Positions 11,408-38,229 of a DNA stretch of 64,000 nt are shown here, one piece after another (within the stretch, counting starts at the first letter, position 1; every line of letters starts with the position of its first letter). The notes below the pieces were generated by a model. It had not been told where the DNA came from and did not search any database. It saw nothing but the letters and a program-made list of their open reading frames with translations. Source of the stretch: an uncultured Clostridia bacterium (GTDB taxonomy: Bacteria > Bacillota > Clostridia > TANB77 > CAG-508); assembly GCA_944391955.1 (NCBI GenBank), contig CALXVG010000001.1, positions 249,916-313,915 of the forward strand, given 5' to 3'. A program made the translations under genes and the position numbers.

Positions 11408-11546
11408 AAAATCTCCTTTGTCTTATATTATAACATTTAAGTCAAGAGTAATTTATAGTTTATAAAATTCTATATTTTTTTATATTTTTTTAGTTTTTTC
11501 CTTTACAAATTGACCATTCTAATATAAAATATGTACAGGTGAAATC

Positions 11547-21428: not shown

Positions 21429-22802
21429 TTAATGGCTTCTTCTTGGTCCTATATCATCATCCCATGGAACTTTTGCACTATTACCTTCATTTTCCTCATT
21501 TGCATCATTAGTGCCCATTTTTTTGTCTAATTCTTCTTCTATTTCTTGATTAACTTTTTCTTTTGCTTCTTCTCTTCCCATTTTTTCTGGGCCTATCATG
21601 TAATTCACTACTCTTGCCGCTTCATTTTTATTATATCCTTCATCCATTAATTGTTCGAATACTTTTTTTGGACTAAGTTCATCCATTGTAATACCTTCTT
21701 CTTTAAAGCCTGTATCCTCTATTTTATCATAACTTTTGCTAATTGTTTCTGAGTTGTCTTGTTTGTTTGTTGTATCACTTTTAGCATTTACTTGTTTACT
21801 ATTATAGTCTGTTCTTGTCCTTTCAACTTCATATCCTACCCATTGTCCGTCATCTCCAAGTCTAGTTTCTTCCATTCGGATTTCGCCGCCTTCTATGTAC
21901 ATAGCCATTCTAATATCTCTTATTCCATGTTGATATCTACTTAATTCTTGTGTTTGCATAACTTGATATGGTTGTTGTTTTTTTACATCTTGTCCGTCTT
22001 TTCCAACACTTATCACTGGTTCTGTTAAATGAGTGGTAGAATCTTTAAAAAATGGCGATGGTTGTATTATTCCTTGTTTATCAACATATTCTGCCTTCAT
22101 TTTACCATCATTATCTCTATAAAAATATGTTGATTTATCAACCATTGGATAATTTTTGAAAAATTGACTATCTGGTCTTATTCTATATACATTTTTTTCT
22201 GGAATGCCTTTTCTTTGTGCTATTTTTTTTGTTTCTTCATCATCATTTTTTTCTTCTTCGTCTTTTTCATCTTCGCCTTCTTTATTTTGTGCTTTTTCGT
22301 CTTTTTCATCTTGTGTTCTTTCCTTATCTCGTTCTTCCTTTTGTTTTTCCAAATCTTCTTTTGTTTTGCCTTCCATTTCTTTTAAAACTGATAAATCAGG
22401 TTTTTCTTGTTCTCCTAACTCTAAAAGTCCTAATTGATTATCAGGGTCTATCTTTTGAACTGTTTCTTTATTTACTTTTAAAGTTCCTTTTTCATCAATG
22501 TTCGCAATTAATACATCTTGACCCTGAAATTTCATATATACTTCGTATGTTGTTTTACTTTGCTCTTCTTCTTTATCATCTAAAAATTTCTCAGTTATTT
22601 CTGCGATTGAAACTTTTAAAATATTATTTCCTAATTTCAAATTGGCATCTTCATAATATTTAACATTTACATCATTATTTCCTGTTTCTTCTGCTCTTCT
22701 TTCTTCTATTCCCTTTATTTTTTCTAGAAGTTCTTCATCTCTTGTCATTTTTTCCTTTTTCATATCTGCTGCTAAATCTTGTCCTGAATTTTCTTCACCC
22801 AT
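21429..22802 (-). CDS. Hypothetical highly acidic/charged soluble protein (457 aa), first gene of the T4SS-like island
   Basis: Long ORF with Glu/Asp/Lys-rich tracts (EKDEEEKNDDEETKK); no TM, no NTP-binding motif. Confidence 0.6.
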   Translation of the reverse strand: MGEENSGQDLAADMKKEKMTRDEELLEKIKGIEERRAEETGNNDVNVKYYEDANLKLGNNILKVSIAEITEKFLDDKEEEQSKTTYEVYMKFQGQDVLIANIDEKGTLKVNKETVQKIDPDNQLGLLELGEQEKPDLSVLKEMEGKTKEDLEKQKEERDKERTQDEKDEKAQNKEGEDEKDEEEKNDDEETKKIAQRKGIPEKNVYRIRPDSQFFKNYPMVDKSTYFYRDNDGKMKAEYVDKQGIIQPSPFFKDSTTHLTEPVISVGKDGQDVKKQQPYQVMQTQELSRYQHGIRDIRMAMYIEGGEIRMEETRLGDDGQWVGYEVERTRTDYNSKQVNAKSDTTNKQDNSETISKSYDKIEDTGFKEEGITMDELSPKKVFEQLMDEGYNKNEAARVVNYMIGPEKMGREEAKEKVNQEIEEELDKKMGTNDANEENEGNSAKVPWDDDIGPRRSH

Positions 22803-22813
22803 ATTATTACCTC

Positions 22814-24229
22814 CTATTCACCTTCTTTTTGTATTTCTATGCTAATAATCTTATACTCCTGTCCTTCACCTAATTCAAGCTCTATTTTTACTGTTATTTC
22901 ATCAGAATTAATCACATTACCATCTGTTATTGTTAAAGAATATGATGTTTTTTCATCGTTTGATGAATAAGTACCAAACTCTAATTTATTATTTCCAAAC
23001 AGGTTATTTTCTAGATAATCTACCATATTTTGATAATCTGTAAAAGTATCATTATTTGCTAATTTATTATATACATATGTGTAGTCTCTATTGTTTATTG
23101 CTTCAAACATTCTCTCTATATTAAGTTGTGTCTTTGTTGATGCTGATGCATCATTATATTTACTTGTAAAATAGTTTAAATCTACTGTATATGTATCTAA
23201 GTATAATTTGTAATTCATAACACCATCTATTTCAAATATATAGTAATTTCCATATGGGTCTAAGCATATACAGTATTGTTGACCATTTTCTATATACATC
23301 TGATACTTCTCTAAAGATTTTTGAGGAGTTCTTGATAAATATTCATTATATTCATCATCACTTGCAAATTCTTCTCTATCTCTGATACTACTTGGGTCTA
23401 AACTTGCTAATTGAGATGCTTTACTTTCTTCATTCAAATATGCTAAAAATGCATTATAACTTCCAAATCTATTCTCCCTATACTCTTCATCTAATGAATT
23501 ATATGCTTCTTCTGAGTTATATCTAGCATTTTGGATATAATCTCTTAAATACTTATTAGCCATTTCTTCTTCTGTTAATGTTGTACTTGAAATTTTATTG
23601 TATGTGTCTAATTCTATTTCTTGATTATATGTTTCTGTTATTTGTTCTGTTGTATAATTATTATATTCGGCTAAGGTTATAGGCTTAATTGCATATGACA
23701 TATTTACTGAATCATAATACATAACTAAATAATATGGTGTTTTCTGAAAATCTTTTGTTAATGTACCATAAATATAATATATGGTTTTATCTGATTTATA
23801 ACTATACATTTCTTTTGCTTTGTATGTTCCGTCATATGGTATGTTTGCTCGCATAGTTTCTAATACGTTTGCACTATTTATAGAGTTTTGTGATATAAAG
23901 TTATCATCTAACAATTGCAAGACTGCATCTGCATTTCCAACTCTCAAATATAAAAAATATTTACTTATCATTGTTTCTGTTGAAAAGAATATATTTCTAT
24001 TTGTTACTTTTTTTAGTTTTTCTTCTGTATTATTTTCTACTTCTACTGGAAAGGTTTGATTATAGCTTGTGATATTGTTATTTATCACATTATTTAATAT
24101 GTTATTTGTAGCAATATTATTATTTGTCTGTTCTTCATCCGTTTTAAAAGTAGTAATTACTAACATTGAAATAACTATTATCATGATAGCAACAATTAAA
24201 ATAATAACTATTTTTTTTATATTATTCAT
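22814..24229 (-). CDS. Membrane-anchored hypothetical protein (471 aa), T4SS-island component
   Basis: N-terminal TM IVIILIVAIMIIVISMLVITTF then Asn/Tyr-rich extracytoplasmic domain. Confidence 0.6.
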   Translation of the reverse strand: MNNIKKIVIILIVAIMIIVISMLVITTFKTDEEQTNNNIATNNILNNVINNNITSYNQTFPVEVENNTEEKLKKVTNRNIFFSTETMISKYFLYLRVGNADAVLQLLDDNFISQNSINSANVLETMRANIPYDGTYKAKEMYSYKSDKTIYYIYGTLTKDFQKTPYYLVMYYDSVNMSYAIKPITLAEYNNYTTEQITETYNQEIELDTYNKISSTTLTEEEMANKYLRDYIQNARYNSEEAYNSLDEEYRENRFGSYNAFLAYLNEESKASQLASLDPSSIRDREEFASDDEYNEYLSRTPQKSLEKYQMYIENGQQYCICLDPYGNYYIFEIDGVMNYKLYLDTYTVDLNYFTSKYNDASASTKTQLNIERMFEAINNRDYTYVYNKLANNDTFTDYQNMVDYLENNLFGNNKLEFGTYSSNDEKTSYSLTITDGNVINSDEITVKIELELGEGQEYKIISIEIQKEGE

Positions 24230-24241
24230 TTATATCTCCTT

Positions 24242-25060
24242 TTAACGTGAATATGTTACTTTATTATATTGGTTACTTCTTATTACTGCAGATTTGCTGA
24301 TTCCCTCTGATGGTGTTACAATTAGAGTATTATATCTATTTGCACTAATTGGCATAATTGAAAAACTATCTGTTGTTATATCCATATTTACTATAAAAAA
24401 TATATATGCATTTCCTAATTGATATCTTACATAATATATTGAATATGTACTTCCTGTTATTTGGTAAATTTCGTTTATTTCACTCATATCACTTTGATTA
24501 TAATTAGGAACATTGCTTAATACATTATCTTGTGTAACACTATTATTTTGTATATATGTGCTATCTAATACAGCATATACTGCATTTTCATTAGAATCTT
24601 CTACATAATTTAAATATTTCTTAATACAATTTTGTATTGTATTTATTATTGCTGTACGTGTAGCTTTTGTTGGTGTTACCCCTGTTAGTTCTATATCCTT
24701 ATTTACATTTTCTTCATTACTTTGTGCCTGATTATTTAAAATTTCTGTATCATCTATTATATTTTCCGTTGTACTATTGTTTGTATTATTACTTGTTGGA
24801 TTATTGTTAACTATATTTTCTTTCACCGTATTATCTCCTACAATATTGTTTTCTATTTGATTATTATTTATTTCATTACTTATATTATTTATAATAATAT
24901 TATTCTGAACACTACTAGCAGTGTTATTTTGTGTTGCTATGCTATTTGGTATTACTGTTTTTTCTTCTGTGTCTTTGTTTAAAATCATTAAAATTACCAA
25001 CAATACTATTAAAATAATACATATTATAACTAAAATTTTAATTATTTTTTTTATATCCAT
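24242..25060 (-). CDS. Membrane-anchored hypothetical protein (272 aa), T4SS-island component
   Basis: N-terminal TM ILVIICIILIVLLVILMIL; Asn-rich; operonic spacing. Confidence 0.6.
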   Translation of the reverse strand: MDIKKIIKILVIICIILIVLLVILMILNKDTEEKTVIPNSIATQNNTASSVQNNIIINNISNEINNNQIENNIVGDNTVKENIVNNNPTSNNTNNSTTENIIDDTEILNNQAQSNEENVNKDIELTGVTPTKATRTAIINTIQNCIKKYLNYVEDSNENAVYAVLDSTYIQNNSVTQDNVLSNVPNYNQSDMSEINEIYQITGSTYSIYYVRYQLGNAYIFFIVNMDITTDSFSIMPISANRYNTLIVTPSEGISKSAVIRSNQYNKVTYSR

Positions 25061-25095: not shown

Positions 25096-26682
25096 TTACA
25101 AAGAATAATATCCATAAATTTCTGAATAATCTATATTTATCTCTTTTCTTTCTACTTTACTGCCTTTCCAATATGGGTTTGTTGATGAACTACCTGTATT
25201 TCCTTCTATAGTATATACTTTTATTCCATCACTGTCAACAACAATACCTGTGTGATCAATTGAACCATCATTTTCCCAATCATAAAATATAATATCTCCC
25301 GATTTTGGTACATAATTTGGATAGTCTTCTTGTGTTCTTCTTCTGCTCTCATCCATAAGTCTAAATTCTTCACACCCTCTAAATGGATTTGACAATACAT
25401 CTGGTATTAATCCGCAATTATAATAACAATATGAAACAAACATTGCACACCAATCCGCCTCTATTGAAGGTTCATTACCATAAAATGTACGAATTCCTTC
25501 TGGTATTGTATATGATGTAAATCTAGAATGTCCTTCTCCTTCAAATTGTAATGCAAATTCTGCAACATCTGATGTGGCAATAAATCCTCCGTTTTCTTCA
25601 TATGTAAAAATCTCTTCCTCATTTTCTGATGTTCTTGTTACTTCTTTATCTGGAACAGTATTTCCTTCTTTCATATCATTATTTTGTAACCATTCTAATT
25701 GTTCTTGCGTATAATATATATAATAGCTTCTTCCAAATACTTCTCCTGCGTCTGAATATGTAAAATCATATATTCCTTTTACATATGTTTCGAAAGCTGC
25801 ATCTCTTGCTGGAACATGTCCTGCATATCCTCCACCTACTTTACTCCACCATTTATCCCAAATATGCTTGTTATGTTCCCATGAATTTATTTCATATAAC
25901 CCTGCACCTTCTTCATATACTTCTTTAAATGTATATCCATTTCTTGTTGGTAAATGTCCAAAGTTATATTTTATTGTAGTTAATGCATATAATTGTTGTT
26001 GTGATAAGTTTAATCCTTCTGTTTCCTCTAATACACTTTGATATGATGCTTCTGCTACTTGTCCTCCAATCTGATCTACTAATTCTTTTTCAATATATAT
26101 TTCCATTGCATCTATTTCTTCATCTGTATATGTAGCAGTATGTCCTCTAGTTAAGAAATTTTCAACATATTCTGCTACATTTTCTTCTGTATATTCTCCA
26201 TCTGATTTTAATACTTTTCCTTTACACTCAAAACTAGGATAGTGTGATTTCCACTGTAAATCTGAATTGCCTATTGTTGGCCATCCTGCTCCATCTCCAT
26301 ACATTTTATAAAACCTGCCATCTTCAGTTTGAGGGGCTTCTGTAGTGTGAGAAAATTGTCTTAAATAATCTACTAATGATAATTCTTGAGATGCATTATT
26401 CATATCTTCATCATTTAATCCATTTTCAGTATCTCCACCAAATAAAGCCGTAATAATTGCTGCTATAATAACTGTTACAATTATTATAGGAAGTAAATAC
26501 ATCATTATTTTTGCAACTACTGTAGCTATAATCTTTATTATTGCTTTTACCAATTGTTTTTTTGCATTTTTCTTTGCTTGTCTTTTAAATGCCTCTTTTC
26601 CACTTTTTAATGCTAGATTATTTTGTCTGTTAGCTTCAACTTCATCTAATTGATTATTTTCTTCTTCATTCATTTTACTCAC
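25096..26682 (-). CDS. Conjugation-type cell-wall hydrolase (N-terminal TM, glycosidase-like middle region, C-terminal CHAP amidase/peptidase domain)
   Basis: TM IIATVVAKIMMYLLPIIIVTVIIAAI. C-terminal CHAP catalytic Cys/His context WCAMFVSYCYYNCG ... GSIDHTGIVVD; analogous to TcpG/PrgK/CwlT/Orf14. Confidence 0.75.
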   Translation of the reverse strand: MSKMNEEENNQLDEVEANRQNNLALKSGKEAFKRQAKKNAKKQLVKAIIKIIATVVAKIMMYLLPIIIVTVIIAAIITALFGGDTENGLNDEDMNNASQELSLVDYLRQFSHTTEAPQTEDGRFYKMYGDGAGWPTIGNSDLQWKSHYPSFECKGKVLKSDGEYTEENVAEYVENFLTRGHTATYTDEEIDAMEIYIEKELVDQIGGQVAEASYQSVLEETEGLNLSQQQLYALTTIKYNFGHLPTRNGYTFKEVYEEGAGLYEINSWEHNKHIWDKWWSKVGGGYAGHVPARDAAFETYVKGIYDFTYSDAGEVFGRSYYIYYTQEQLEWLQNNDMKEGNTVPDKEVTRTSENEEEIFTYEENGGFIATSDVAEFALQFEGEGHSRFTSYTIPEGIRTFYGNEPSIEADWCAMFVSYCYYNCGLIPDVLSNPFRGCEEFRLMDESRRRTQEDYPNYVPKSGDIIFYDWENDGSIDHTGIVVDSDGIKVYTIEGNTGSSSTNPYWKGSKVERKEINIDYSEIYGYYSL

Positions 26683-26778: not shown

Positions 26779-29406
26779 TTATACAAAATCATTTATATCA
26801 TTAAATAGACTTTTTGCTTGATTTGCACTTAAGCCATATCTACCTGCATATCTTATAAATGCATTTTCATTATCATATAATTCTGCTGGCATATTTTTTG
26901 CAATTGCCATTCTTGCTGCAACTTCTTGTCCTGATAGGTTTTTACTTGTTTTTAATGATGAGAATTTCTTTACATCTGTTACTCCTAACTTATCTAGGGT
27001 TTTATATTCATCTCCATTTACACCAGCTTCTAAAGCCTCTTGTATTTTACTTGCATCTGTTATTCCATTATCTAAGAATATCTGTGTTTGGGCTCTTATT
27101 TGGTCACTACTATATTGTGATTTTAACTGGCTACTTGATGCAATTTTTTTGTATCCAGAACTTTTATAAAATTCTTGGTCAAATTTCATATTTTGGAATG
27201 CTTCTTCTCCCATTATACTTCTTTGTACTGCATCTGAAGCTTTTCCTACAAGATTGGCACCTTTATCTGGTAGTCCTGCAATTGAATTTCCTAGAACACT
27301 ACCTGCTGCAATTCCTGTAAATAAGTCTGCACCTAAATGGTCAAGATTTCCATCTGCCATGTCTGCTGCAAGTGCTGCTGTTGTAGCTGTTGCTACACCT
27401 AAAGTTTTAGCTGCTGCTTTTCCACCAGCAAGCAATCCTTTTCCAGCAAATTTACCTGCTGACCTTAATATATTAACACCACTGATATTTCTTCTACTTC
27501 GTCCTGTAGAACCAGATGCTCCGCCACTTGCACTACGTGACCCACTTGAGCCAGATCCGCCTCCTGAACCAGCGCCACCACTTGAACCAGAGCCACCACT
27601 TGAACCAGAACCGGCACCTCCTGTTGCAACACCTGCCACAGCTCCGCCATTAGCATCCGATGATGCTGAACCATTTCTTGTTGCTGTTCTTACATATGCA
27701 TTTGAATTGTCTGAACCAGAATTTGCTCCTCCTTTGCCAGAAGAACCACCTTTTCCTCCCATACCTTTTACTTTATTTAACATATTCATTACCATTGCTC
27801 CACCTGCTGCTGCACCTAAAGTATTGAAGCTTGATTGTTGTGAATTTATTCCAAACATTTGCTTAATTATTTTTTCTGCTGGCATCATAAATGTTAATGC
27901 AACAATTGAATATAAAATATTTTCTGCTGCAAAATCTATTGCATTTGTAATTAATAATGTATATAAAAGTAAATGTACTGGTTGTATTAAGCAATTAACT
28001 ACATATTCTTTTAGCCAGAAATTAAATGCTTGTGCTTTTCCATCTCGTACTTTATCTATAGGGTATGTTAAGGCTATAAGTGGTGCTATCATTGTTAAAA
28101 ATGCCATATATACAACCCTTTTTAAGTATTGAAATGTGAACGAAATCGTTAGAATAACTAATACGAAATACATTATAGTGAAACCTGCTGTATTAAAAGC
28201 ATTATCTAAATCTTCTCCTACTTTTTCTCTAACAGTATTCATTATTTGATCTGTTGGAAATCCACCTGTTTCAGCTACTTCTATTACATTGCTTGCAAGC
28301 ATTGAATTTATTCTTTCCGTAAAAGTTGTTAAGAATGCCATTACATAATGTAATATAAATAAAATACATATTGCAACTAACCAATCTTTTAACATGTTTT
28401 TATATTTTGCTTTATCTTGTGCTGAGGCACTACTTAAAATTATTCTAATACCTAAATATAGCAACACTGATAATAATCCAACTAATGCAAATGTTCTTAG
28501 TGCGATATACCATCTTGCTATATTATCTTTCAATTTCCATGCTGTTGATGTAAGCTGTACAGAATTTATATCAGTATCAGGTATTCCTTGTAATAATGTT
28601 TCAACTGAAGTAGTACATTCATATAATGTAATTCCTGTGTTTTGTCTTACTTCAAATTTATATAATTTTGTCACTCCGCTTTCATCTTGTTTTGTATATA
28701 AAGTTACATGGTGTAAATCAGGATCATATCTTCCAAAGAATCCTTTTGTTCCATTATATGGTTCTGATAATATAGGTTCAATCGTCTCCATTGCACCCCA
28801 CCAACCAGAATCTGAACACGTATATTCATATATATTATTATTTATTCTTTCTTTATATACATATTTGATTCCTCCGCTATTGTGAATACTGATTTTATAA
28901 TTATATGCAGAAAAAATCTCATTAACTTCTTCAATTTTAGTTTCATCTGGATTAATATATTTTTCTGTACTTCCAATTACTGTAAAATCTGTTCTGCCTA
29001 AAGGATTTCCATCTGCTTTTCTTCCATCTTCAATCAAAGCTAACATATCAGTTCTACTATCTATATCTATTGTAAGCTTATTATATTTTGCGTTATCAGA
29101 CTCTGTTGCTGTTATAAAATTAACATCTAAAGCTGGAACTACATTTGCAAATATTATTCCTGGTGAATATCTTATTGTATATTCGCCATTTGTATATATA
29201 TCTGATGTTCCAATCATCATCCATTGTATTATTCCTAAGAAAGCATCTCCTACATAAGCAACTAAATAAAAAATTCCTGATACCAGCTTATGTCCTACAG
29301 ATTCCCCAAAAGCATATACATATTTTGGCATAATAAAATTGGTTGACATTACTATTAATATTATTACAACTAACAATTTTTTTAATATGCTATTTTTCGT
29401 TCTCAT
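26779..29406 (-). CDS. VirB6/TcpH/Orf15-like polytopic T4SS channel protein, paralog 1 (875 aa), with Gly/Ser-rich linker
   Basis: Signal peptide and extracytoplasmic domain. Conserved WYIALRTFALVGLLSVLLYLGIRI multi-TM core. 90-aa G/S low-complexity tract GSGSSGGSGSSGGAGSGGGSGSSGS. C-terminal domain ending LFNDINDFV shared with paralog 2. Confidence 0.75.
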   Translation of the reverse strand: MRTKNSILKKLLVVIILIVMSTNFIMPKYVYAFGESVGHKLVSGIFYLVAYVGDAFLGIIQWMMIGTSDIYTNGEYTIRYSPGIIFANVVPALDVNFITATESDNAKYNKLTIDIDSRTDMLALIEDGRKADGNPLGRTDFTVIGSTEKYINPDETKIEEVNEIFSAYNYKISIHNSGGIKYVYKERINNNIYEYTCSDSGWWGAMETIEPILSEPYNGTKGFFGRYDPDLHHVTLYTKQDESGVTKLYKFEVRQNTGITLYECTTSVETLLQGIPDTDINSVQLTSTAWKLKDNIARWYIALRTFALVGLLSVLLYLGIRIILSSASAQDKAKYKNMLKDWLVAICILFILHYVMAFLTTFTERINSMLASNVIEVAETGGFPTDQIMNTVREKVGEDLDNAFNTAGFTIMYFVLVILTISFTFQYLKRVVYMAFLTMIAPLIALTYPIDKVRDGKAQAFNFWLKEYVVNCLIQPVHLLLYTLLITNAIDFAAENILYSIVALTFMMPAEKIIKQMFGINSQQSSFNTLGAAAGGAMVMNMLNKVKGMGGKGGSSGKGGANSGSDNSNAYVRTATRNGSASSDANGGAVAGVATGGAGSGSSGGSGSSGGAGSGGGSGSSGSRSASGGASGSTGRSRRNISGVNILRSAGKFAGKGLLAGGKAAAKTLGVATATTAALAADMADGNLDHLGADLFTGIAAGSVLGNSIAGLPDKGANLVGKASDAVQRSIMGEEAFQNMKFDQEFYKSSGYKKIASSSQLKSQYSSDQIRAQTQIFLDNGITDASKIQEALEAGVNGDEYKTLDKLGVTDVKKFSSLKTSKNLSGQEVAARMAIAKNMPAELYDNENAFIRYAGRYGLSANQAKSLFNDINDFV

Positions 29407-29526: not shown

Positions 29527-29835
29527 CTAAGTCAATACATCATAATTAAAAATTATAGTTTTTGCATTAAATGAAGTGGGTAAAATCGTTGATTCCTTTT
29601 CGTCTTCAATCTTTAATATATACCATGCTGCTGTGCATAGGAAAATAATTCCTAATGACACTATCAGTATAATTAAAATTGTTATTTTTATTTGGTGTAT
29701 AAGTCCATTTATTGCCTCTTTTAATAATGTTTTTCTTCTTTCCTTCTTTTTTGCCTTTTTTTCTTTATGCTGAAAGTTTGTTATTTCTAATCTGTTTTTT
29801 CTATCCTCATCATCCCAATTAGAATTTAAATTCAT
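29527..29835 (-). CDS. Small single-TM protein (102 aa) between the two VirB6-like genes
   Basis: Basic N-terminus KKAKKKERRK, TM ITILIILIVSLGIIFLCTAAWYIL. Confidence 0.5.
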   Translation of the reverse strand: MNLNSNWDDEDRKNRLEITNFQHKEKKAKKKERRKTLLKEAINGLIHQIKITILIILIVSLGIIFLCTAAWYILKIEDEKESTILPTSFNAKTIIFNYDVLT

Positions 29836-29858: not shown

Positions 29859-32690
29859 TTAGAAAAAATCATTTAGTTCTTTGAATATTGCTTCTGCATC
29901 TTTTTCTGTTATTTTTTTACCATAAAACACTTTATTTACCATTATTTTTTTAAATTCTGGTAAAGTTTTTGGAACATTTTTAGCTAATTTAAACATATCT
30001 GCCAGTCCTTCATGAGAGTATTCTGGATGTTTTTTCTTTACTTCAATAATTTTTTCCAGGTCTGTTTCATCTCTATCTTTAAAGTACTTAACATCTTCAG
30101 GTAATATCTTTTCTTTTTTCAAATTAATCATTTCTTTTACTGTTTTTATTCCTAAACTTTCATATTCTTTAAATTCATCTTCTGTTATTTCATTTTCTTT
30201 TAACTGAATTATATCCGATATTCCCTCTACTCCAGATTCTTTATATGCTTTATATTCTTGACCTGTTATACCATTTTCCATTGCCATATTTAGCTTATCT
30301 GGATTTGTTAGTATATCATCTGAAAATCCTCTAATATTTTCTGTCATATTTTGTTTTATTTCATCTATATTTATTTCATGTTCATTATTTTCATTATTTG
30401 TTGAGTTAGAATCTCTTCTTCCTAATAAACTTCTTCTATGTGTTCCATATGCATGTTTTGCTTGGCTTTGTATTTTTCTGTTTATTCCAGAAGCAATATT
30501 GGCTCCTGCTATTGCACCGGCTCCTGTGTATTTTGCTGTATTTCCTAATTCCCCTGAAGCAACTCCAGCTCCTAAACCAATAGTTGCACCTCCAAATGCT
30601 CCTGCAATTTTTGCCGCATGATTAGTTGCCCATTTACCTGTTTTTGCTATCCATCTTCCTGTTGATTTCAATGTACTAGGTCCTAAAATTTTTCTTCTAT
30701 TTGTTCTGGATACTTTATTTCCTTTCATACTGCTATAATTTTCATTTGAATTGCTAGTATTTTTACTTTTATTTTGTGAATTAGTTAAAACGATATTTCC
30801 TGTGCCACTAGTTACATTCTCATTGTTTGATTCTATTTCATTTTTCTTCTGTTCATCTTCATTAACTGTTCTTACTCTATTATCATTACTTTGTTTTTCT
30901 TCTAAATTGGCATGCTTTGCTTTACCTTGTATTTTATTCATCATATTCATTAGCATAGCACCACCTGCTGCTGCCCCCACTGTTCCCACTGTGCTAGCTT
31001 TTTCAAATCCAAACATTTTTCTAATAAATTTTTCAGCTGGTATGAAAAATGCTAATACAATAATTGCATATACAGGATTTACATTTACTAGCTTACTAGC
31101 ACTTTCAATAAAAATTGTATATAGCAATAAATGTACTGGTTGTAATAGACAATTAAATATGTATTCTCTAATCCAAATAGAAAATGCTTGAGCTTGTCCA
31201 TCTTTAATCTTATCAATAGGATATGTAAGTGCTATTAGTGGTGATACCATTGTTAAAAATGCTATAAACACTAACCTTTTTATATATTGGATTGTAAATA
31301 TTACTGTTAAAATAGCTAATGCAATATACATTATTACATATCCAAAATATGTAAAATAAGAATCATTGTTATTTCCTGTTGCCATATTTCTAATATTAGT
31401 TATGAATTTATCTGTACCATCAATTGAAATAGTACTTACAGTAAAAAGATTGGTTAATCTTTCTGTAATACTTAATATAAATACCATTAGATAATGCAAA
31501 ACAAATAATATAGCTATTGCAATAAGCCAATCTAATAACATTTTTTTGTATTTTGCTTTATCTTGTGATGTACTGCTCATTAATATCCTAATTCCAACAT
31601 ATAGTAGTACAGATAATAGCCCTACTAATGCTAAATTTCTTAAAGCTATATACCAAGAAGCAATTATAGGTCTTAATGTATATGCTGTTGATGTTTTTTC
31701 ATATACTTCGTCAGTTGTTGTTTCACCAATTTTGTATAAGGTGCCTGACAAAGTATCCCTTGAGTTTTTATCCATCCACTCTTCTGAATCACAAATATAG
31801 AAGTATGTTTCATTATTATATTGCCATTGCATATAGTATAAGTTCTTATCTTTTAATCTATCTGCTATTGCTACGCCTTCGGCTCCTGCCGCTGCTGCTA
31901 AAAATATTGCAACTGATATTGCACCTGCATCGGCTGGCATTGGTATACTTGCTATTCCTTCAACTTCAACTACCATACCTACACCGCCACCATATGTAGC
32001 ATACTCCCAATCCGTATTAGCTAATGCTTCTACTGCATTCATAACAGATACTAATGCAATTCCATGAGCAAAAAGTTCTGTTAAACTCATGTTGTCTCTA
32101 ATTGATTGTAAAGGATTTGTTGCTCCATAATCTGTTTTACATTGTTCATATGTAATACTGTCAGAAACAGTAATATATTCTATCTTTGTTTTATAAAACT
32201 TTGTTTTTCCTTCTTCATCTCCAAGAGGTGAGAAAAAATTTATATCAAATGCTGGTATCTGTCCAGAGAAAATTGCTGCTGGTGAATATTTTATTCTGTA
32301 TATTGTTGCTCCTTTTCCTCCTTTGTTTCCTGGTGTTTCTTCTTTGATAGCATCAGATGTTATAATATTTGAAAATTTTTCATCCCCTATAAATGTCGAT
32401 TGTAATGTTGACATTACTCCATCTGCTATTCCTAGTATAAACTGACTTATTGGAGTAAATAATGCACCACCTTCTTCTTCTGTATTTTCTTCTTCTTCAG
32501 TTGAATCTAATATAGATTGCATTATATTTGTTAAATCATCCTGACTAACTGAGCTTCCCGGATCATATTCTGGTATTGATTCTATGTCTGATGCCGTTTC
32601 TGCATATGACCACTTAGGAATTATAAATTCTGCCAAGATTATTAAACTTATTATTGTTAATAATATCCTTTTTTTAAAACCAATTTTCAT
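29859..32690 (-). CDS. VirB6/TcpH/Orf15-like polytopic T4SS channel protein, paralog 2 (943 aa)
   Basis: WYIALRNLALVGLLSVLLYVGIRI core and same TM layout as paralog 1. Asn/Ser-rich linker. C-terminus IFKELNDFF. Confidence 0.75.
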   Translation of the reverse strand: MKIGFKKRILLTIISLIILAEFIIPKWSYAETASDIESIPEYDPGSSVSQDDLTNIMQSILDSTEEEENTEEEGGALFTPISQFILGIADGVMSTLQSTFIGDEKFSNIITSDAIKEETPGNKGGKGATIYRIKYSPAAIFSGQIPAFDINFFSPLGDEEGKTKFYKTKIEYITVSDSITYEQCKTDYGATNPLQSIRDNMSLTELFAHGIALVSVMNAVEALANTDWEYATYGGGVGMVVEVEGIASIPMPADAGAISVAIFLAAAAGAEGVAIADRLKDKNLYYMQWQYNNETYFYICDSEEWMDKNSRDTLSGTLYKIGETTTDEVYEKTSTAYTLRPIIASWYIALRNLALVGLLSVLLYVGIRILMSSTSQDKAKYKKMLLDWLIAIAILFVLHYLMVFILSITERLTNLFTVSTISIDGTDKFITNIRNMATGNNNDSYFTYFGYVIMYIALAILTVIFTIQYIKRLVFIAFLTMVSPLIALTYPIDKIKDGQAQAFSIWIREYIFNCLLQPVHLLLYTIFIESASKLVNVNPVYAIIVLAFFIPAEKFIRKMFGFEKASTVGTVGAAAGGAMLMNMMNKIQGKAKHANLEEKQSNDNRVRTVNEDEQKKNEIESNNENVTSGTGNIVLTNSQNKSKNTSNSNENYSSMKGNKVSRTNRRKILGPSTLKSTGRWIAKTGKWATNHAAKIAGAFGGATIGLGAGVASGELGNTAKYTGAGAIAGANIASGINRKIQSQAKHAYGTHRRSLLGRRDSNSTNNENNEHEINIDEIKQNMTENIRGFSDDILTNPDKLNMAMENGITGQEYKAYKESGVEGISDIIQLKENEITEDEFKEYESLGIKTVKEMINLKKEKILPEDVKYFKDRDETDLEKIIEVKKKHPEYSHEGLADMFKLAKNVPKTLPEFKKIMVNKVFYGKKITEKDAEAIFKELNDFF

Positions 32691-32718: not shown

Positions 32719-34674
32719 CTATGCGTTTTTCTCGGCTATTTTGTTTAAATTTGTTTCCATAAATTCAAATTCTCGTTTTGTTGGTGTTATTTGTAGTATT
32801 GCTGTATCTGCACCAACCTTAAATAATCCTTCTCCTATTAAACATGTTACTAGGAAATTTGCTTCACCTTCACTTAATTTGAATACTTCTTTTAAGTATG
32901 CAATTTCAGATTTATCTTGTGCCAAAAATAGCTTTGTTTCTGATGATGTTAGTACTGCTTGTGCTTCTGGTTTTTCGTAGAAGTCTTGGAATCTTTGTGA
33001 TACTATTGCAAGTGATACATTTCTTTTTCTTGCACGTCTTGCCATTTTATTTAAGAATTCTACAGCTTCTGGGAATGGTAGCAACATCCATGCCTCGTCT
33101 ACTAAAACTCTTTTCTTTACTGCTTTTGTTTTATCTTCACTATTTTTCTTAACAAATTTTTCCCATATCCATGATAATAATATTTGTTGTGCAAGTGGTC
33201 TTGCAAATCTTTCTTCTAGCTGTGAAATATCTAGATTTATAAATGGTACTGAATCTAATAAATCAAATGTTGACTGTCCATCAAAATATGCCATTTGTCC
33301 ATTTAGTTCTCTTACATATTGTTTCATAACTTTACTTAAATAACTATAATGGAATGTATAGTTACTATCTTGATTTTCCTTTGCTTTTCTTAATAATGTT
33401 TTATACCATGAACCAATTGTTGGCATTGCTTTCTTTTCTCTTGAGATTTTACCTAACTTGCCTAATGTATTTGGTTCATATAAGCTTTCTGGGTCTGCAG
33501 TTATACCACATCTTGCATATTCTTCTGCTACTGCTTCTGCTATTATTTGTTTTGTTAATTCATTTACTTCTTCACTTCTTGTACTACCTCTTGCCATTGT
33601 AATTAATGCTTGTGTTACGTCTTCTATTTTATTTTCTACGTTTAAAACTGTTCTTTCTCTTCCTGTTATTTCATCTCTAACTTTTTCTTCTTCTATATCA
33701 AATAAATTTATTACTGTTTGTGATGTTGGTCCTAATACAACATTTATTCCACCTAGGGCTTCAGCCACTATTTTATACTCACCTTCTGCATCTAGTGCCA
33801 AACTTTCAATTCCCATCAATACAGCTGAACGAGATATTAAGGTTTTCATTGTAACAGATTTACCTGCACCAGATTTAGCAAATATAACCATATTGTAATT
33901 TGCTAAAGTTGGATGGAAATTATCAAATAATACTGGTACACCAGTTTGTTTGTTTATTCCTATTGGAATACCTGTTAAATGTCCAACTTCTGAAGTTGTA
34001 AATGGGAAAACTGTTGCCATTGAATTTCTATCAAATGTATGTGTTGTTTTTATTTGATTTTTCATTAATGGCATATTTGATTGCAATGCTTCATCTTGAA
34101 TTCCCCATGCTGATTTTATTCCAACTAATGTTTTTGACATTTCTGTTGCTAATAATTTTGTATATGCATCTAATGATTGTAAATTATATGAATATAGTGT
34201 TGATATTATTGAAGCTTCAAATAATTTATTAAATCCTGATGCAATTTCATCTCTTAATCCTTCTGCTTCTAATCTTTTTTGTGCTAATATACTTTCTCTG
34301 TTTATATTTCCTCTATCTGCTGCTACGATTCTTTCTGTTTCTAATTGGTTTATTACTTTATTTAATTCATTTTGAGATCTTGCTTCTGGAACTGGTCTTA
34401 TGTATATGGATGTATTTATATCTCCAAATAAATACATATCTCTAAATAATTCTGGGAATGTACACATTCTAGGAAGACTTGATACAAAGAAACTTCTTGC
34501 ATATCTTGTTGTGTTTGATATTATTTCCAAATGGTCTATATTTGAAGCATCTATACCTGCTGGAGCAATTAATTCTTTTATAGACTTTTTTCTTAGAATA
34601 TTATATTCTGGTTCTTGTCTACTTAGATTATTCTGCTGTGTTCTTGATTCTAGCTCTCTTGTTTTTTTGCTCAT
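32719..34674 (-). CDS. VirB4/TraE/Orf16-like conjugal transfer ATPase
   Basis: Firmicute VirB4 N-terminus IKELIAPAGIDASNIDHLEIISNTTRYARSFFVSSLP. Walker A FAKSGAGKSV. Walker B RVLVDEAWMLL. C-motif AIVSQRFQDF. Confidence 0.85.
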   Translation of the reverse strand: MSKKTRELESRTQQNNLSRQEPEYNILRKKSIKELIAPAGIDASNIDHLEIISNTTRYARSFFVSSLPRMCTFPELFRDMYLFGDINTSIYIRPVPEARSQNELNKVINQLETERIVAADRGNINRESILAQKRLEAEGLRDEIASGFNKLFEASIISTLYSYNLQSLDAYTKLLATEMSKTLVGIKSAWGIQDEALQSNMPLMKNQIKTTHTFDRNSMATVFPFTTSEVGHLTGIPIGINKQTGVPVLFDNFHPTLANYNMVIFAKSGAGKSVTMKTLISRSAVLMGIESLALDAEGEYKIVAEALGGINVVLGPTSQTVINLFDIEEEKVRDEITGRERTVLNVENKIEDVTQALITMARGSTRSEEVNELTKQIIAEAVAEEYARCGITADPESLYEPNTLGKLGKISREKKAMPTIGSWYKTLLRKAKENQDSNYTFHYSYLSKVMKQYVRELNGQMAYFDGQSTFDLLDSVPFINLDISQLEERFARPLAQQILLSWIWEKFVKKNSEDKTKAVKKRVLVDEAWMLLPFPEAVEFLNKMARRARKRNVSLAIVSQRFQDFYEKPEAQAVLTSSETKLFLAQDKSEIAYLKEVFKLSEGEANFLVTCLIGEGLFKVGADTAILQITPTKREFEFMETNLNKIAEKNA

Positions 34675-35821
34675 TTTCTTCTCCTCCTTCTTCTTGTGTT
34701 TTTCTTATTCTTTGTATAGATTTTTCTGTTACATCTTTTCCAACATATTTTTGGTTTTCTCTTAACATATCTTCTGCCATTTTTTGAACTAATTTTTCAA
34801 AATCCTGTTCTTTCTTTTTTATTTTTCTTTCCTTTTCTGCTCTTACAACACTTATTGTTTCTTTTGCTAATTTTAATGCTTCTTTTTCTATTTTTTCGTC
34901 TATTGCCTGCATTTTCTTATCTAATACATCTGGTGCTGTTGAAAATAGTTCGTTATAACCTGATCTTATTGCCTTTTGTACACTAAATATGTCTGAATCA
35001 TCTCTGTTATATGCAATATACAATAGTTCAACTAATTCATTAGAATTTAGAACTCTACTTTTTATACTACATGCTGATAATGTTCTTATAAGTGATTGTG
35101 CCCTTGTATATAATTCTGAAAATATCATACTTTTTCTTTCTTCTTCATCTAGCAAATCTCCACCTAGTTCTGCAGAATAGTATGGAACTATTATATAATA
35201 GTGTTTTCTCAAAACATTTTTATTTTGACTTGTTTTTTGTATGCTATCTATTACATCACTACCATATTCGTACAAGTTTTTCAATCTTAATATTTCCATT
35301 GATAAAGCATCTGCTTGTTTTTCATTATAATTGTCTGCTTTTATTAATCTTGCATACATTGCTTGTTTTGTGTCTAATTCTTTTTTGGTAATTTCTAGTT
35401 TTTCGTTGTATTTAGAAAGACTTTCTGATATATTTATTGTTCTTGTTTGTGTATATATTTGTATTGGATGTCTTAGAGTATTTAAAAACTGAACAAATCC
35501 TGCTTCTACTGCTGTTTTTTCTACATGTGACATTAGGTCATAGTTTATTCCTTCACATTCTATAACCATTAAATATCTCTTACCTTCATCTTGTACTATC
35601 ATATTATCTTCTATCTTATCAAATTGCATATATTGGAAGATAGATTTTTTTGTGTATTCCTTTGCTACTTTTGTAGTAGTTCCCACTGTAGCTCCATCTT
35701 CACTAATGCTATGTTTATTTTTGTATGACATGTACCATGCTACAAAAAGCAAAATTATTATTGCAAATACTAAAAAAATCAATAAAATTGTTAATAGGCT
35801 CATTATACTATCCATTTTCAA
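34628..35821 (-). CDS. Membrane-anchored T4SS-island protein with coiled-coil C-terminus (397 aa)
   Basis: N-terminal TM LLTILLIFLVFAIIILLFVAWY. Soluble domain; 47-nt overlap with VirB4-like gene and ATGA overlap with upstream gene (translational coupling). Confidence 0.6.
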   Translation of the reverse strand: MKMDSIMSLLTILLIFLVFAIIILLFVAWYMSYKNKHSISEDGATVGTTTKVAKEYTKKSIFQYMQFDKIEDNMIVQDEGKRYLMVIECEGINYDLMSHVEKTAVEAGFVQFLNTLRHPIQIYTQTRTINISESLSKYNEKLEITKKELDTKQAMYARLIKADNYNEKQADALSMEILRLKNLYEYGSDVIDSIQKTSQNKNVLRKHYYIIVPYYSAELGGDLLDEEERKSMIFSELYTRAQSLIRTLSACSIKSRVLNSNELVELLYIAYNRDDSDIFSVQKAIRSGYNELFSTAPDVLDKKMQAIDEKIEKEALKLAKETISVVRAEKERKIKKKEQDFEKLVQKMAEDMLRENQKYVGKDVTEKSIQRIRKTQEEGGEENEQKNKRARIKNTAE

Positions 35822-36111
35822 TTTTCCCCCTTATCTTCTGTATATGTGTATATTATATTTTTTTTCTTTTTAAACTTATACCATTTTAGTATAGCTTCAT
35901 CTATTTTTTCTCCGCCTGCTCTTTTGGTAAATGTAAATGAATTATTTTCTGGAATCCTAAATGTTGCAACAGCAAAGCCTATTCCTGCAAAGGCAAGTGC
36001 TATTATTATTCCTACTATATGCATTCCTAATGACATAAATAAATAGAAGAATATCAAACCTATTACACCTGTTGCACATGTATATATCAACGATTTTGCT
36101 GTAAATATCAT
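35818..36111 (-). CDS. Small two-TM protein, VirB3/Orf17-like candidate (97 aa from ATG; GTG alternative at 36129)
   Basis: MIFTAKSLIYTCATGVIGLIFFYLFMSLGMHIVGIIIALAFAGIGFAV then cytoplasmic tail. GGAAG RBS before ATG 36111. Confidence 0.5.
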   Translation of the reverse strand: MIFTAKSLIYTCATGVIGLIFFYLFMSLGMHIVGIIIALAFAGIGFAVATFRIPENNSFTFTKRAGGEKIDEAILKWYKFKKKKNIIYTYTEDKGEN

Positions 36112-36374
36112 TAATATTCTTCCGTTCACCCTTCACATCTCTTGGAATTTTATGTATTGCCACAGTTATTCCCCCTTTTATGGTATTTATTTAGTTTATT
36201 ATATCAGATTTTGGAGGTAATTGTAACTATTTGTATATATGTAATTAAAACTTAATTTTTTTGTAATATTTTTGTAATATATGCCATAAGAAAGGCGTTT
36301 TGCTAAGTTAGTCTCCGAAGCAAGTGCAAAACACATGTCACTCGCTTTGCTCGGACGAATTAAGGTAGCCTAAC

Positions 36375-36438
36375 CTTGTTGTATACGGAAAAATCCAAAT
36401 AAGGTCAAGCTAAAAGTCGATTTTTCCTATACAATAAA
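36375..36438. repeat. Palindromic intergenic repeat, copy B
   Basis: Arms identical to copy A (CTTGTTGTATACGGAAAAATC ... ATTTTTCCTATACAAT), loop divergent. Again lies directly after an intrinsic terminator in minus sense. Confidence 0.6.
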
Positions 36439-36467
36439 AAAAGATATCAGATTTATTCTGATATCTC
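36434..36467 (-). terminator. Intrinsic terminator after pilin-like gene 36484-36840
   Basis: AGATATCAG-atttatt-CTGATATCT stem followed on minus strand by TTTTTTTAT. Confidence 0.75.
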
Positions 36468-36483
36468 TCTATTAATATAATTA

Positions 36484-36840
36484 TTATAGTGCAAATGTAT
36501 CAAATAATAATTTAGCAATTGTTGTTGCACTCATTACTACTACTATACCTATAATTAAAGGAACCATAGATTTTTTGTATTCTGATTTTTCTTCTAAGCT
36601 TCCCATCATATATTTAACACCTAAAATAGCTATAATAACTACACCACCTATTATTGCAACATTTCTGATAAATCCTAAGATTTTACCTGCAATAGTTTGC
36701 ATTGAGGTTGAATCGCCATATGTAATAGCTCCTTCTACGCCATCTACAGTTGCTTGAGTTGCAAATACTGGTGAAGCTACTGTTATTGTTAAAATTGCTA
36801 TCATCATTAGTACAGAAAGTAATTTAACTGATTTTCTCAT
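36484..36840 (-). CDS. VirB2/TrbC-like pilin-type protein, paralog 1 (118 aa)
   Basis: Signal peptide ending VFATQA. Two hydrophobic helices separated by KYMMGSLEEKSEYKKSMVP, motif shared by all three paralogs. Confidence 0.65.
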   Translation of the reverse strand: MRKSVKLLSVLMMIAILTITVASPVFATQATVDGVEGAITYGDSTSMQTIAGKILGFIRNVAIIGGVVIIAILGVKYMMGSLEEKSEYKKSMVPLIIGIVVVMSATTIAKLLFDTFAL

Positions 36841-36950
36841 ATTTTTCCCCTTTCTTTATAATATTTATATTTTGCACTTTCTTAAGTTGAGAACCTATTA
36901 AAAGATTCTCCGGAACCTTGTTGCTTCCGCAATAAGAAAATGTTAAAGAC

Positions 36951-37391
36951 TTAAATTGTTATATTCTTGCTGCTTATATATGCTGTGTCTGTTGATTCTA
37001 CATTATTTCCTATTTCTATAACTATTTTCCATATTGTAAATGCTGAAAATATTACTACACATCCAACAATATATGGTACCAATGTTTCTTTTATCTTTGC
37101 TTTCTCATCAACACTTCCTGTTATGAATTGAATACCAATTACTAATCCTACACCTATTGCAAGTATTGCTGCAATTGCAAATAGTACATTAAATATCTCT
37201 TTTGATGTTATATTTAATTCTCCTTCATCAAGTGGTTTATTGTTTGCATATGCACCTTTGCCTATATCTAAAAAACCTTCTCCTCCGCCTATAATTTCAC
37301 TTGATATAGTATCATCTGCATATACTTGTGTAGAACAGCATAGCAATATTGTTATTATTATAACTGTTAAATTTAGAATGATTTTTTTCAT
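36951..37391 (-). CDS. VirB2/TrbC-like pilin-type protein, paralog 2 (146 aa from MKKIILNL)
   Basis: Signal peptide ...TQVYA. Helices flanking QFITGSVDEKAKIKETLVP. AGGTGA RBS 4 nt before ATG 37391; longer ORF in track has no RBS. Confidence 0.6.
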   Translation of the reverse strand: MKKIILNLTVIIITILLCCSTQVYADDTISSEIIGGGEGFLDIGKGAYANNKPLDEGELNITSKEIFNVLFAIAAILAIGVGLVIGIQFITGSVDEKAKIKETLVPYIVGCVVIFSAFTIWKIVIEIGNNVESTDTAYISSKNITI

Positions 37392-37405
37392 TTTATCACC
37401 TGTTT

Positions 37406-37750
37406 TTATAAATTTAATTGTTCTATTAATCCTACTAATAATGATACTCCCATTAACATAAAGCAACCTACAACAAATGGTATCATTTCTTTTTTATAAT
37501 CTGCTTTTTCTTGTACACTCAAAAACATATATTTTAGTCCGATTATTGCTAAGACTACTATAGATATCATTATTCCTACGGTTCTTATGGCGCCTAAAAC
37601 TGGTCCTGCTTTTTGAACAAATGATTCTGAACCAGCTAATGATGGTTCGGGATTATAATTTTCTGGATTTTCTAATGCAAATACATTATTTGAAAATAAT
37701 ATAAGCATAATGCTAATTAATGGGACTATTATTTTTAATGTTCTTTTCAT
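37406..37750 (-). CDS. VirB2/TrbC-like pilin-type protein, paralog 3 (114 aa)
   Basis: Signal peptide ...NNVFA. Motif KYMFLSVQEKADYKKEMIP between two hydrophobic helices. Confidence 0.65.
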   Translation of the reverse strand: MKRTLKIIVPLISIMLILFSNNVFALENPENYNPEPSLAGSESFVQKAGPVLGAIRTVGIMISIVVLAIIGLKYMFLSVQEKADYKKEMIPFVVGCFMLMGVSLLVGLIEQLNL

Positions 37751-37977
37751 TAATTTAGCACCTCCTTATGCCTACTATCACTAATATTATAGCATTTTTT
37801 GATATTTATTGCAACTTTTTATGTTTATTTTTCTTTATATTTCTACATTTTTAATATAATTTTAATGTTTTTTTCAAAATTTGTCAATATCTTCTTGTAA
37901 AATTATTTTTAAATCCCAATTGGGGACGTATTTAAATTGAGAAAAATTTTCCAATTTGGGACAGGTTTGATTTAGCG

Positions 37978-38020
37978 GAGGTTGAAAGTTGGATGTTGGA
38001 TGTTGGAGGTTGGAAGTCTG
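37978..38020. repeat. Short tandem repeat (G/A)GTTGGA x5
   Basis: GGAGGTTGAAAGTTGGATGTTGGATGTTGGAGGTTGGAAG read directly; adjacent palindromes TCCCAATTGGGGA and CCAATTTGGGAC at 37915-37965. Confidence 0.5.
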
Positions 38021-38039
38021 TTTTCTGATTTCGGGGCAA

Positions 38040-38090
38040 TAAAAAACCTTGTAAGTACTTTAAAATCAATACTTACAAGGTTTTTACGGT
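38040..38090 (-). terminator. Intrinsic terminator downstream of tRNA-Gly(TCC)
   Basis: CCTTGTAAGTAtt...aaTACTTACAAGG stem, followed on minus strand by TTTTTTATT. Confidence 0.75.
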
Positions 38091-38092
38091 TT

Positions 38093-38166
<74 letters not shown>

Positions 38167-38173
38167 TTGCTCG

Positions 38174-38202
38174 CTACGAATATAGATTATAGACTATTTT
38201 TT
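38174..38202 (-). promoter_or_regulatory. Consensus sigma-A promoter (TTGACA-17-TATAAT) with A/T UP element driving tRNA-Gly
   Basis: Minus strand reads AAAGTATTGACA-17-TATAAT about 7 nt before the tRNA 5' end. Same TGTCAATACTTTTTTTAAAATTT block is reused at 58586. Confidence 0.75.
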
Positions 38203-38229
38203 TTAGTTTGTCAATACTTTTTTTAAAAT

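Follow-up and report, generated by a model that had tools for sequence, protein, structure and literature searches.

The type IV secretion systems (T4SSs) of Patescibacteria combine TrsD, VirB4, PrgI and VirB6 with arrays of 2-11 VirB2 genes that share a mean identity of 25%, and they have no relaxase (PMC12102498). In Ca. Southlakia epibionticum the array holds six pilin genes and is essential (PMC12857230). According to two reviews published in 2025, Gram-positive T4SSs lack VirB2 homologues, the single exception being Patescibacteria (PMC12102498, PMC12857230). Here we characterize three tandem VirB2/TrbC-like pilin genes, termed A, B and C, and the T4SS genes next to them in a 64-kb stretch of DNA (64,000 nucleotides, referred to as the window) from an uncultured Clostridia bacterium. 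We consider it likely that A, B and C are VirB2/TrbC-family propilins of a domesticated, vertically inherited and non-conjugative T4SS. They belong to a known protein family in a known kind of array; their lineage and setting are unreported in the searchable literature.

Three pilin genes upstream of a secretion machinery

All three proteins pass the gathering cut-off (26.6 bits) of the Pfam family T4SS_pilin (PF18895), with 29.5 bits for A, 35.4 for B and 41.7 for C, and as judged by these profile scores the three-gene pilin signal is far above chance. The TrbC/VirB2 family (PF04956) is matched by C with 44.4 bits, by B with 27.9 bits, exactly at the cut-off, and by A with 24.7 bits, below it. 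An earlier interpretation made from the letters of this DNA (the sequence-only reading) had called the three proteins pilins on the strength of their architecture, an identity that the two families uphold. A profile built from 72 C-type homologues gathers 5583 representatives of 50%-identity clusters at E <= 1e-3, which makes this a large family. Moreover, A, B and C are encoded beside the virB3 and virB4 genes of a T4SS, as expected for the VirB2/TrbC family: a pilin unit made up of a promoter-like site, A, B, C and a terminator lies directly upstream of genes for VirB3-like, TrsD-like, VirB4, two VirB6-like, CHAP-domain and probable VirB8-like proteins.

The array is on the minus strand, and the interval 36484-37750 runs from the last base of the stop codon of C to the A of the ATG of gene A. 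Gene A (37406..37750, minus), the first of the array, encodes 114 aa and is preceded by a strong Shine-Dalgarno sequence (AAGGAGGTG). B (36951..37391, minus) encodes 146 aa, and C (36484..36840, minus), the last gene, encodes 118 aa and likewise has a strong Shine-Dalgarno sequence. The spacers measure 14 nt between A and B and 110 nt between B and C. Coordinates and sizes are exactly those of the sequence-only reading, and independent gene calls from six metagenome contigs of the same species gave identical A, B and C proteins, in agreement with ATG 37391 as the start of B.

Kyte-Doolittle hydropathy revealed a common layout. Each protein begins with a K/R-rich N-terminus and a hydrophobic h-region, followed at residues 25-27 by a V-F/Y-A motif compatible with signal peptidase I (-3/-1 rule), which appears as VFA|LE in A and as VYA|DD in the signal peptide of B. 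Beyond the cleavage motif lie an acidic hydrophilic stretch and then two hydrophobic segments of ~30 residues around a charged loop, both of which are transmembrane (TM) segments in A and B. The mature N-terminus of B is longer and acidic, and the protein carries an additional hydrophilic C-terminal tail of ~20 aa. AlphaFold, run for pilin C with a 72-sequence alignment, placed helices 45-79 and 82-117 in a packed hairpin (predicted local distance difference test, pLDDT, 77.8). Hydropathy and the C model thus agree with the signal peptide and two hydrophobic helices that had been proposed for all three proteins. The motif said to be common to them is complete in the loops of A (KYMFLSVQEKADYKKEMIP) and C (KYMMGSLEEKSEYKKSMVP) and degenerate in that of B (IQFITGSVDEKAKIKETLVP), so this part of the claim holds for two of the paralogs; the invariant residues that A, B and C share in and just past the motif are limited to G, S, E, K, K, P and G. 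Pairwise identity is 33% for A and C and 19% for A and B.

As a separate observation, the database open reading frames (ORFs) P0241 (450 aa), P0242, P0245 and P0360 (1147 aa) contain 2-10 successive pilin-profile matches per predicted protein. Either these are genuine fused polyproteins, or the gene callers applied another genetic code and so read through tandem arrays.

Distribution and evolution of the locus

A scan of genome contigs based on VirB4 alignment, with one genome per species, confirmed VirB4 relatives in 480 stretches of species-representative genomes. The best 80 of these 480 encode VirB4 proteins that are 77-94% identical and all come from metagenome-assembled genomes of uncultured gut Clostridia (human, mouse, rabbit, goat). 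Among them are Clostridium sp. CAG:452 and two chromosomes that are complete, with lengths of 1.57 and 1.70 Mb. GTDB assigns CAG-452 to o__TANB77; f__CAG-508 (PMC13106387 supplement), and the window probably comes from this order too; the carrier lineage is at least partly TANB77, a placement demonstrated through the CAG-452 relative only. TANB77 is uncultured and has a reduced genome with a distinctive GC content (PMC11680825).

Pilin genes were tallied in 95 loci by phmmer, with A, B and C each compared with every ORF. With same-species duplicate contigs dropped, 74 species loci were counted, and 62 of these 74 had precisely three pilin ORFs, arranged as A-B-C ahead of virB3. The raw tally, which includes same-species duplicates and some weak matches in long VirB6-like ORFs, comprised 88 loci with pilin-like ORFs (62 with three, 19 with four, two with five and one with six). 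When the best cross-species BLAST match of each pilin was recorded, it fell at the same array position in 55/62 cases for A, 58/62 for B and 62/62 for C. Given this constant order and positional orthology, the paralogs must be old and specialised.

Nei-Gojobori ratios of nonsynonymous to synonymous substitution (dN/dS), calculated against four species, were 0.34-0.56 for the pilins, 0.15-0.21 for the TrsD-like protein and 0.07-0.13 for VirB4, values that are rough because dS is partly saturated. A, B and C are all under purifying selection and change more rapidly than VirB4. The median identity between a window protein and its counterparts in other species was 79% for VirB4, 46-47% for the PrgI-like and TrsD-like proteins and 39-44% for the pilins. 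Within the C family, the loop is near-invariant (entropy 0.34 bits) and the mature N-terminus is hypervariable (2.69 bits; length 18-32 aa). A and C of the same genome had a median similarity of 85 bits, compared with 76 bits for A and C of different genomes and 79 bits for A orthologues among themselves; these sequence scores carry hints of occasional A/C gene conversion and of some concerted evolution.

Together, the 62 species loci with A-B-C, the positional orthology and the purifying selection support the suggestion of the sequence-only reading that the paralogs reflect functional diversification and not recent duplication. Its alternative of antigenic variants is not favoured, since each paralog has its own conserved orthologue group and a search for inverted repeats returned AT-rich imperfect pairs only and no invertible or switchable element, leaving phase or antigenic switching unsupported.

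Transcription signals, machinery genes and a candidate frameshift

Promoter candidates upstream of A (37786..37887, minus) are consensus matches only, namely TTGACA-17-TAAAAT at 37887..37859 and TTGCAA-17-TATAAT, with an extended -10 TG, at 37814..37786. The region holds no more promoter candidates than expected from shuffling. A terminator-like hairpin (36438..36470, minus), formed by a 14-pair stem and a T-run directly after C, ends the pilin unit. A hairpin and T-run follow the last pilin gene in 79/81 related loci, and the stems are unrelated in sequence, so it is the structure and not the sequence that is conserved. The terminator that had been noticed after "paralog 1" is therefore real, paralog 1 being C, the last gene of the array.

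The spacer between this terminator and virB3 extends over ~320 nt to GTG 36163, or 355 nt to the called ORF, versus 110-250 nt in most species. It holds two good hairpins (36130-36440, minus) and has a 10-mer, CAACAAGGTT, in common with the B-C spacer (36841-36950, minus), with 2 matches versus 0.2 expected. Rfam, searched at the gathering threshold and also at E <= 1 over 35700-38300, returned no RNA family in either spacer. Before the machinery genes there is a promoter-like site (36198..36227, minus; GTTACA-18-TATAAT with TG), again a consensus match only. In one related species (L007-L010, ~10514-12968), two extra genes of 590 and 226 aa with no Pfam match lie between the last pilin gene and virB3, which marks the post-terminator spacer as an insertion hot spot. 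On the other side of the array, a tandem repeat at 37977-38017 (a 7-nt unit, GGAGGTT, in ~5.4 copies, or a 14-nt unit at 2.9 copies) sits between the terminator of a tRNA-Gly gene and the pilin promoter candidates, where it may act as an array of regulator-binding sites or be prone to slippage.

The machinery genes are all on the minus strand. The TrsD-like protein (34628..35821, minus; 395-397 aa, with an N-terminal TM helix) represents the N-domain of VirB4/TraC as a separate protein, and its gene overlaps virB4 by 47 nt. The assignment comes from a PF26593 TraC-like entry in a precomputed table for the same protein in six same-species contigs (L001-L006); the local Pfam scan gave no match, and phmmer against PDB sequences returned nothing useful. 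The VirB4-type ATPase (32719..34674, minus; 651 aa; PF19044, PF12846, PF01935) matches VirB4 of PDB 4ag5 at E = 8e-27 and NCBIfam conju_CD1110 with 196 bits. It covers just positions 182-729 of the CD1110 profile, without 1-181, a profile coverage consistent with the N-domain of VirB4 being the separate TrsD-like protein.

Two VirB6-like proteins with 6-7 TM segments are encoded further downstream. Copy 1 (29859..32690, minus; 943 aa) is of the extended VirB6 type and has weak matches to TrbL_4 (19 bits) and MMCAP2_0566. Copy 2 (26779..29406, minus; 875 aa; TrbL_4 23.6 bits) is a tandem duplicate of it; the duplication is visible as direct repeats (D1-D3, D6) of several hundred bases with 71-85% nucleotide identity, ~3150 nt apart. 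The VirB6-like gene is single-copy in most related species. A small single-TM protein (29527..29835, minus; 102 aa) is encoded between the two copies. The cluster continues with a CHAP-domain cell-wall hydrolase, a VirB1 analogue anchored in the membrane by one TM segment (25096..26682, minus; 528 aa; PF05257, 40.6 bits), and a bitopic membrane protein (24242..25060, minus; 272 aa). Next comes a bitopic protein with an N-terminal TM helix (22814..24229, minus; 471 aa), which has no sequence-family match in Pfam or NCBIfam and has homologues in 54 related loci. Its AlphaFold model consists of a TM helix and three tandem NTF2-like domains (pLDDT 87), for which Foldseek returned NTF2 folds (probability 0.99-1.0) and the VirB8-like OrfG of ICESt3 (8s7l, 7pkw; E = 0.02-0.04). 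This modelled fold makes the protein a probable VirB8-type component of the OrfG/TcpC type. The last gene, which encodes an acidic soluble protein (21429..22802, minus; 457 aa), is assigned to the cluster by position only. The Pfam and NCBIfam scans recognised none of the proteins of the cluster as a VirB5-like tip protein.

The VirB3/PrgI-like gene (35818..36163, minus) is split by a conserved extra C (GAA-C-GGA). Frame 0, with a strong ribosome-binding site and GTG 36163, encodes MAIHKIPRDVKGE-R; the +1 frame encodes the transmembrane portion, GRILMIFTAKS..., and the shift site is GAA-CGG-AAG at ~36125..36117 (minus). Across loci, 68 have an uninterrupted virB3-like gene (...KGEGRILF...) and 24 have one extra C, in the form GAR-CGG-(A/T)AG. 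The extra-C loci represent about a dozen species of the subclade nearest the window (including L007-L019, L022-L024 and L026), and the extra C is present in all six independent contigs of the window's own species. Synonymous third-position changes support selection that acts on frame 0 as far as GAR and then on the +1 frame, starting with GGN. Two of the species, L022 and L023, have no +1-frame start codon near the shift site, and in one species a TAG stop directly follows the CGG. The frameshift-corrected protein matches PF12666 PrgI with 29.8 bits (cut-off 27; profile positions 1-89), compared with 18.3 bits for the unfused ORF. CGG is the rarest sense codon of the window (7/18,244) and the overlapping GGA is the commonest glycine codon; a rare-codon site is the classic "hungry codon" setting for +1 frameshifting. 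These sequence patterns suggest that both halves are still translated and make the site a candidate for a programmed +1 ribosomal frameshift which, if confirmed, would be a rare bacterial case outside prfB.

Setting, proposed function and comparison with known systems

The cluster does not look conjugative. A Pfam scan that took in essentially every ORF of >= 100 aa in the window found no relaxase, coupling protein (VirD4/TcpA) or integrase, and none is present within ±10 kb in the precomputed Pfam tables of three other species. A Clostridium type IV coupling protein (T4CP) seed gave one weak match across the 95 related loci. GC content is uniform at ~29%, the same in the cluster as in its flanks. 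The left flank encodes a Na/Ca exchanger, endonuclease III, a germination protease, LonC and TsaBDE, and the right flank encodes tRNA-Gly(tcc), a YkuD transpeptidase, Sua5 and RNase III. The tRNA-Gly gene is served by a separate promoter and terminator. In other species, the cluster comes directly after PPDK and DXS and has no mobility genes within 10 kb. That the cluster appears to be a conserved chromosomal machine and not a mobile conjugation module is a point which the sequence-only reading had missed.

Elsewhere in the window, a TraX-family membrane protein (15514-16203, plus; PF05857, 148 bits) is encoded amid housekeeping genes ~20 kb from the pilin genes; the F-pilin N-acetylase belongs to the TraX family. 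A protein of 1227 aa with a thioester domain (TED) and DUF11 repeats (46605-50288, minus) is probably a covalent-binding surface adhesin. Downstream of it lies an ORF of 454 aa (44857-46221), and in the same-species contig L001 the gene at the counterpart position encodes 444 aa with a CLIPPER domain (PF01345) in the precomputed table.

The mechanism that we propose takes the export, processing, assembly and orientation of its pilins from VirB2/TraA (PMC12857230). Sec export and leader cleavage would yield mature hairpin subunits of ~90-120 aa that are pooled in the membrane. A complex of VirB4, TrsD, VirB3 and VirB6 would extract these subunits and polymerise them into a pilus or stalk, which would cross the peptidoglycan where the CHAP hydrolase opens it locally. 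C is proposed as the major subunit because it is the most canonical VirB2/TrbC protein, is best conserved and has a strong Shine-Dalgarno sequence; A and B would be accessory (e.g. initiation, tip or adaptor). The hypervariable acidic N-termini would lie outside the filament and the conserved loop would line its lumen, as in solved VirB2/TraA pili. By uncoupling pilin from machinery expression, the terminator would keep pilin transcripts in excess. The machine may serve contact or exchange with other cells, as in the Patescibacteria T4SS and Bartonella Trw, and not plasmid transfer or that of an integrative conjugative element (ICE). We favour contact or exchange over conjugation because no coupling protein or relaxase was found in the searched regions and because the locus is chromosomal and conserved, in a reduced genome.

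Several points weigh against this interpretation. The search for T4CP and relaxase covered the 64-kb window and ±10 kb of related loci and was not genome-wide, and the T4CP of Patescibacteria is often encoded far from virB4. The sole match of the 72-homologue C-type profile among PDB sequences (E <= 10) was TrwL (8s6h), the VirB2 pilin of R388, in an alignment that spans the hairpin and loop motif but is marginal (E = 0.045). Foldseek with the pilin C model against the PDB found generic helical hairpins alone (ATP-synthase c subunits, EsxB; E > 0.7), and is uninformative because a two-helix hairpin matches such proteins too. The VirB6-like and VirB8-like assignments are sub-threshold or fold-level matches, and the choice of C as major subunit has conservation and profile scores as its sole basis. 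Finally, pilus formation is inferred, and the hosts are uncultured.

A, B and C could be genuine VirB2 homologues that form a short stalk or channel part in the membrane and cell wall, with no extracellular pilus. Such a role would accord with the lack of a recognised VirB5-like tip protein in the cluster and with Gram-negative VirB2, which is needed for substrate transfer even without pili (PMC12857230). We nevertheless judge it unlikely, as three specialised paralogs, a terminated unit and a hypervariable, surface-type N-terminus better fit an abundant exposed polymer.

The main rival on the functional side is a T4SS for DNA uptake (competence), like Helicobacter ComB or archaeal Ced/Ted, whose pilin structure would capture DNA or conduct it to the membrane, with ComEC then carrying it into the cytoplasm. 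ComB itself works without a relaxase or T4CP, and neither was found here in the searched regions; the window contains a ComEC gene (53057-55318, minus; Competence and metallo-beta-lactamase domains), the small genome suggests reliance on imported nucleotides, and VirB4 has faint NCBIfam matches to CedB and CedD. However, these matches reach 23-27 bits against cut-offs of 600-700, which amounts to generic P-loop similarity, and ComEC is common in Firmicutes and lies 15 kb off amid unrelated genes. In S. epibionticum, the essential role of the T4SS is separable from ComEC (PMC12857230). We hold an uptake function to be rather improbable.

The position of the tRNA-Gly gene 340 nt upstream of pilin A might suggest an ICE integrated there, active or decaying, with the pilins serving mating-pair formation, and the same gene order recurs on the nearest plasmid relatives, large plasmids of Clostridium (VirB4 42% identical), one of which encodes a T4CP. 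This explanation is largely refuted and retains very little credence. The searched regions are without integrase, relaxase and T4CP, and no att-type direct repeat of the tRNA-Gly 3' end is present at the far side of the cluster; elsewhere the cluster adjoins other housekeeping genes (PPDK, DXS) and not a tRNA; across at least 80 species, VirB4 keeps 77-94% identity with intact ORFs and low dN/dS; and the GC content of the cluster equals that of the flanks. Least credible of all, close to negligible, is that A, B and C are unrelated small membrane proteins (holin-like or immunity) whose hairpin mimics pilin profiles by composition: the fold is generic by Foldseek and short hydrophobic sequences can give composition-biased hidden Markov model scores, but two independent pilin profiles were passed, the loop motif aligns with TrwL, and the genes hold a fixed place directly upstream of virB3/virB4 in ~80 species.

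This locus places a Patescibacteria-like architecture, as a conserved chromosomal system, in hundreds of true Clostridia species. If its T4SS with three propilins is indeed domesticated and non-conjugative, it would also provide a second, independent lineage in which a domesticated T4SS accompanies genome reduction and unculturability. The two 2025 reviews leave open whether the pilins of the Candidate Phyla Radiation (CPR) were borrowed from Gram-negative systems, and with a three-pilin system in Clostridia and a single-pilin version on Clostridium plasmids, the question of pilin origin becomes testable by phylogeny. Of all gut taxa, TANB77 is the one linked most consistently to checkpoint-blockade response, and immune activity has been reported for one of its other pilins, of the Tad type; a further surface filament that is abundant and variable would therefore be of practical interest. 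We also entertain a broader proposal, which as a whole is speculative and doubtful: that TANB77-type Clostridia need this core T4SS, with its filament of three pilins, to make an obligatory contact with partner bacteria or host surfaces, that the VirB2 array is ancestral in the monoderm machine (mating-pair formation type FATA, MPF-FATA, with TrsD) and not borrowed from Gram-negative bacteria, and that the abundant hypervariable pilins are major surface antigens. If true, the TANB77-type lifestyle solution would be that of Patescibacteria, and the antigens would belong to a clade linked to immunotherapy response.

Among known systems, the "conserved pilin" cluster already described for TANB77 is a Tad/Flp (type IVc) pilus with CpaB, TadZ, CpaE, CpaF, TadBC and single-TM pilins (Kim et al. 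2024, PMC11680825). It resembles the window locus in belonging to the same order and in being a conserved surface-filament locus with several small pilin-like genes. The two are unrelated, and PMC11680825 never mentions a T4SS; our literature search for TANB77 and type IV secretion returned no relevant paper and no description of this system in Clostridia.

The Mycoplasma ICE family Mbov_0395 (NCBIfam NF045849) likewise comprises a pilin-like two-helix protein of a monoderm T4SS, and the VirB4 and VirB6-like proteins of the window match companion Mycoplasma ICE models in NCBIfam. Unlike the window locus, these are mobile ICEs, and A, B and C match NF045849 at 15-24 bits, below its cut-off of 40, and are not members. 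The sequence-only reading had called multiple pilin paralogs unusual in a Gram-positive T4SS; the two 2025 reviews agree with this, yet a Mycoplasma ICE pilin-like family is already named in NCBIfam. The closest annotated VirB4 relatives (42% identity) are those of C. botulinum pINGR16-02E1 and C. beijerinckii p1, plasmids which, like the window, encode a small two-helix protein, PrgI-like, TrsD-like and VirB4 proteins, a large VirB6-like protein and a peptidase/hydrolase. They differ in having a single candidate pilin (138 aa), whose T4SS_pilin score of 19 bits is below threshold, and, on the C. beijerinckii plasmid, a T4CP. The hhalign comparison of the pilin family with the 138-aa protein of the C. 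botulinum plasmid was weak (probability 4.9%), with the loop motif aligned. A tblastn search with pilin C gave no match in 72,556 plasmids.

Tandem amplified and diversified VirB2 genes are also known from Bartonella Trw and from the VirB2 arrays of Anaplasma/Rickettsiales. In Bartonella Trw, a VirB6-type gene is amplified, the coupling protein is missing, and the system serves host-cell adhesion instead of DNA transfer. The window resembles it in combining a VirB2 array with a duplicated VirB6-like gene, whereas the Bartonella, Anaplasma and Rickettsiales copies are more numerous, more alike, and act on eukaryotic host cells. These arrays are cited in the study of the Patescibacteria systems (PMC12102498).

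The Patescibacteria T4SS differs from that of the window in its host, which here is a spore-forming Clostridia lineage (Spo0A and germination protease present), and in its variable complement of 2-11 pilins, as opposed to a fixed A-B-C set with positional orthology. Moreover, VirB1 and VirB8 have mostly gone undetected in CPR; the cluster described here, by contrast, encodes both a CHAP hydrolase and a probable VirB8-like protein. Both systems are of the monoderm MPF-FATA type, with separate TrsD-like and VirB4 proteins and with PrgI/VirB3-like and VirB6-like components. Both have tandem, diverged VirB2-like genes (19-33% identity here, a mean of 25% there) on the chromosomes of uncultured hosts with small genomes, with no relaxase nearby. 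The relaxase-less T4SS of Patescibacteria is by analogy the closest counterpart of the window locus, through a likeness that we claim for the architecture and not for VirB4 clade membership.

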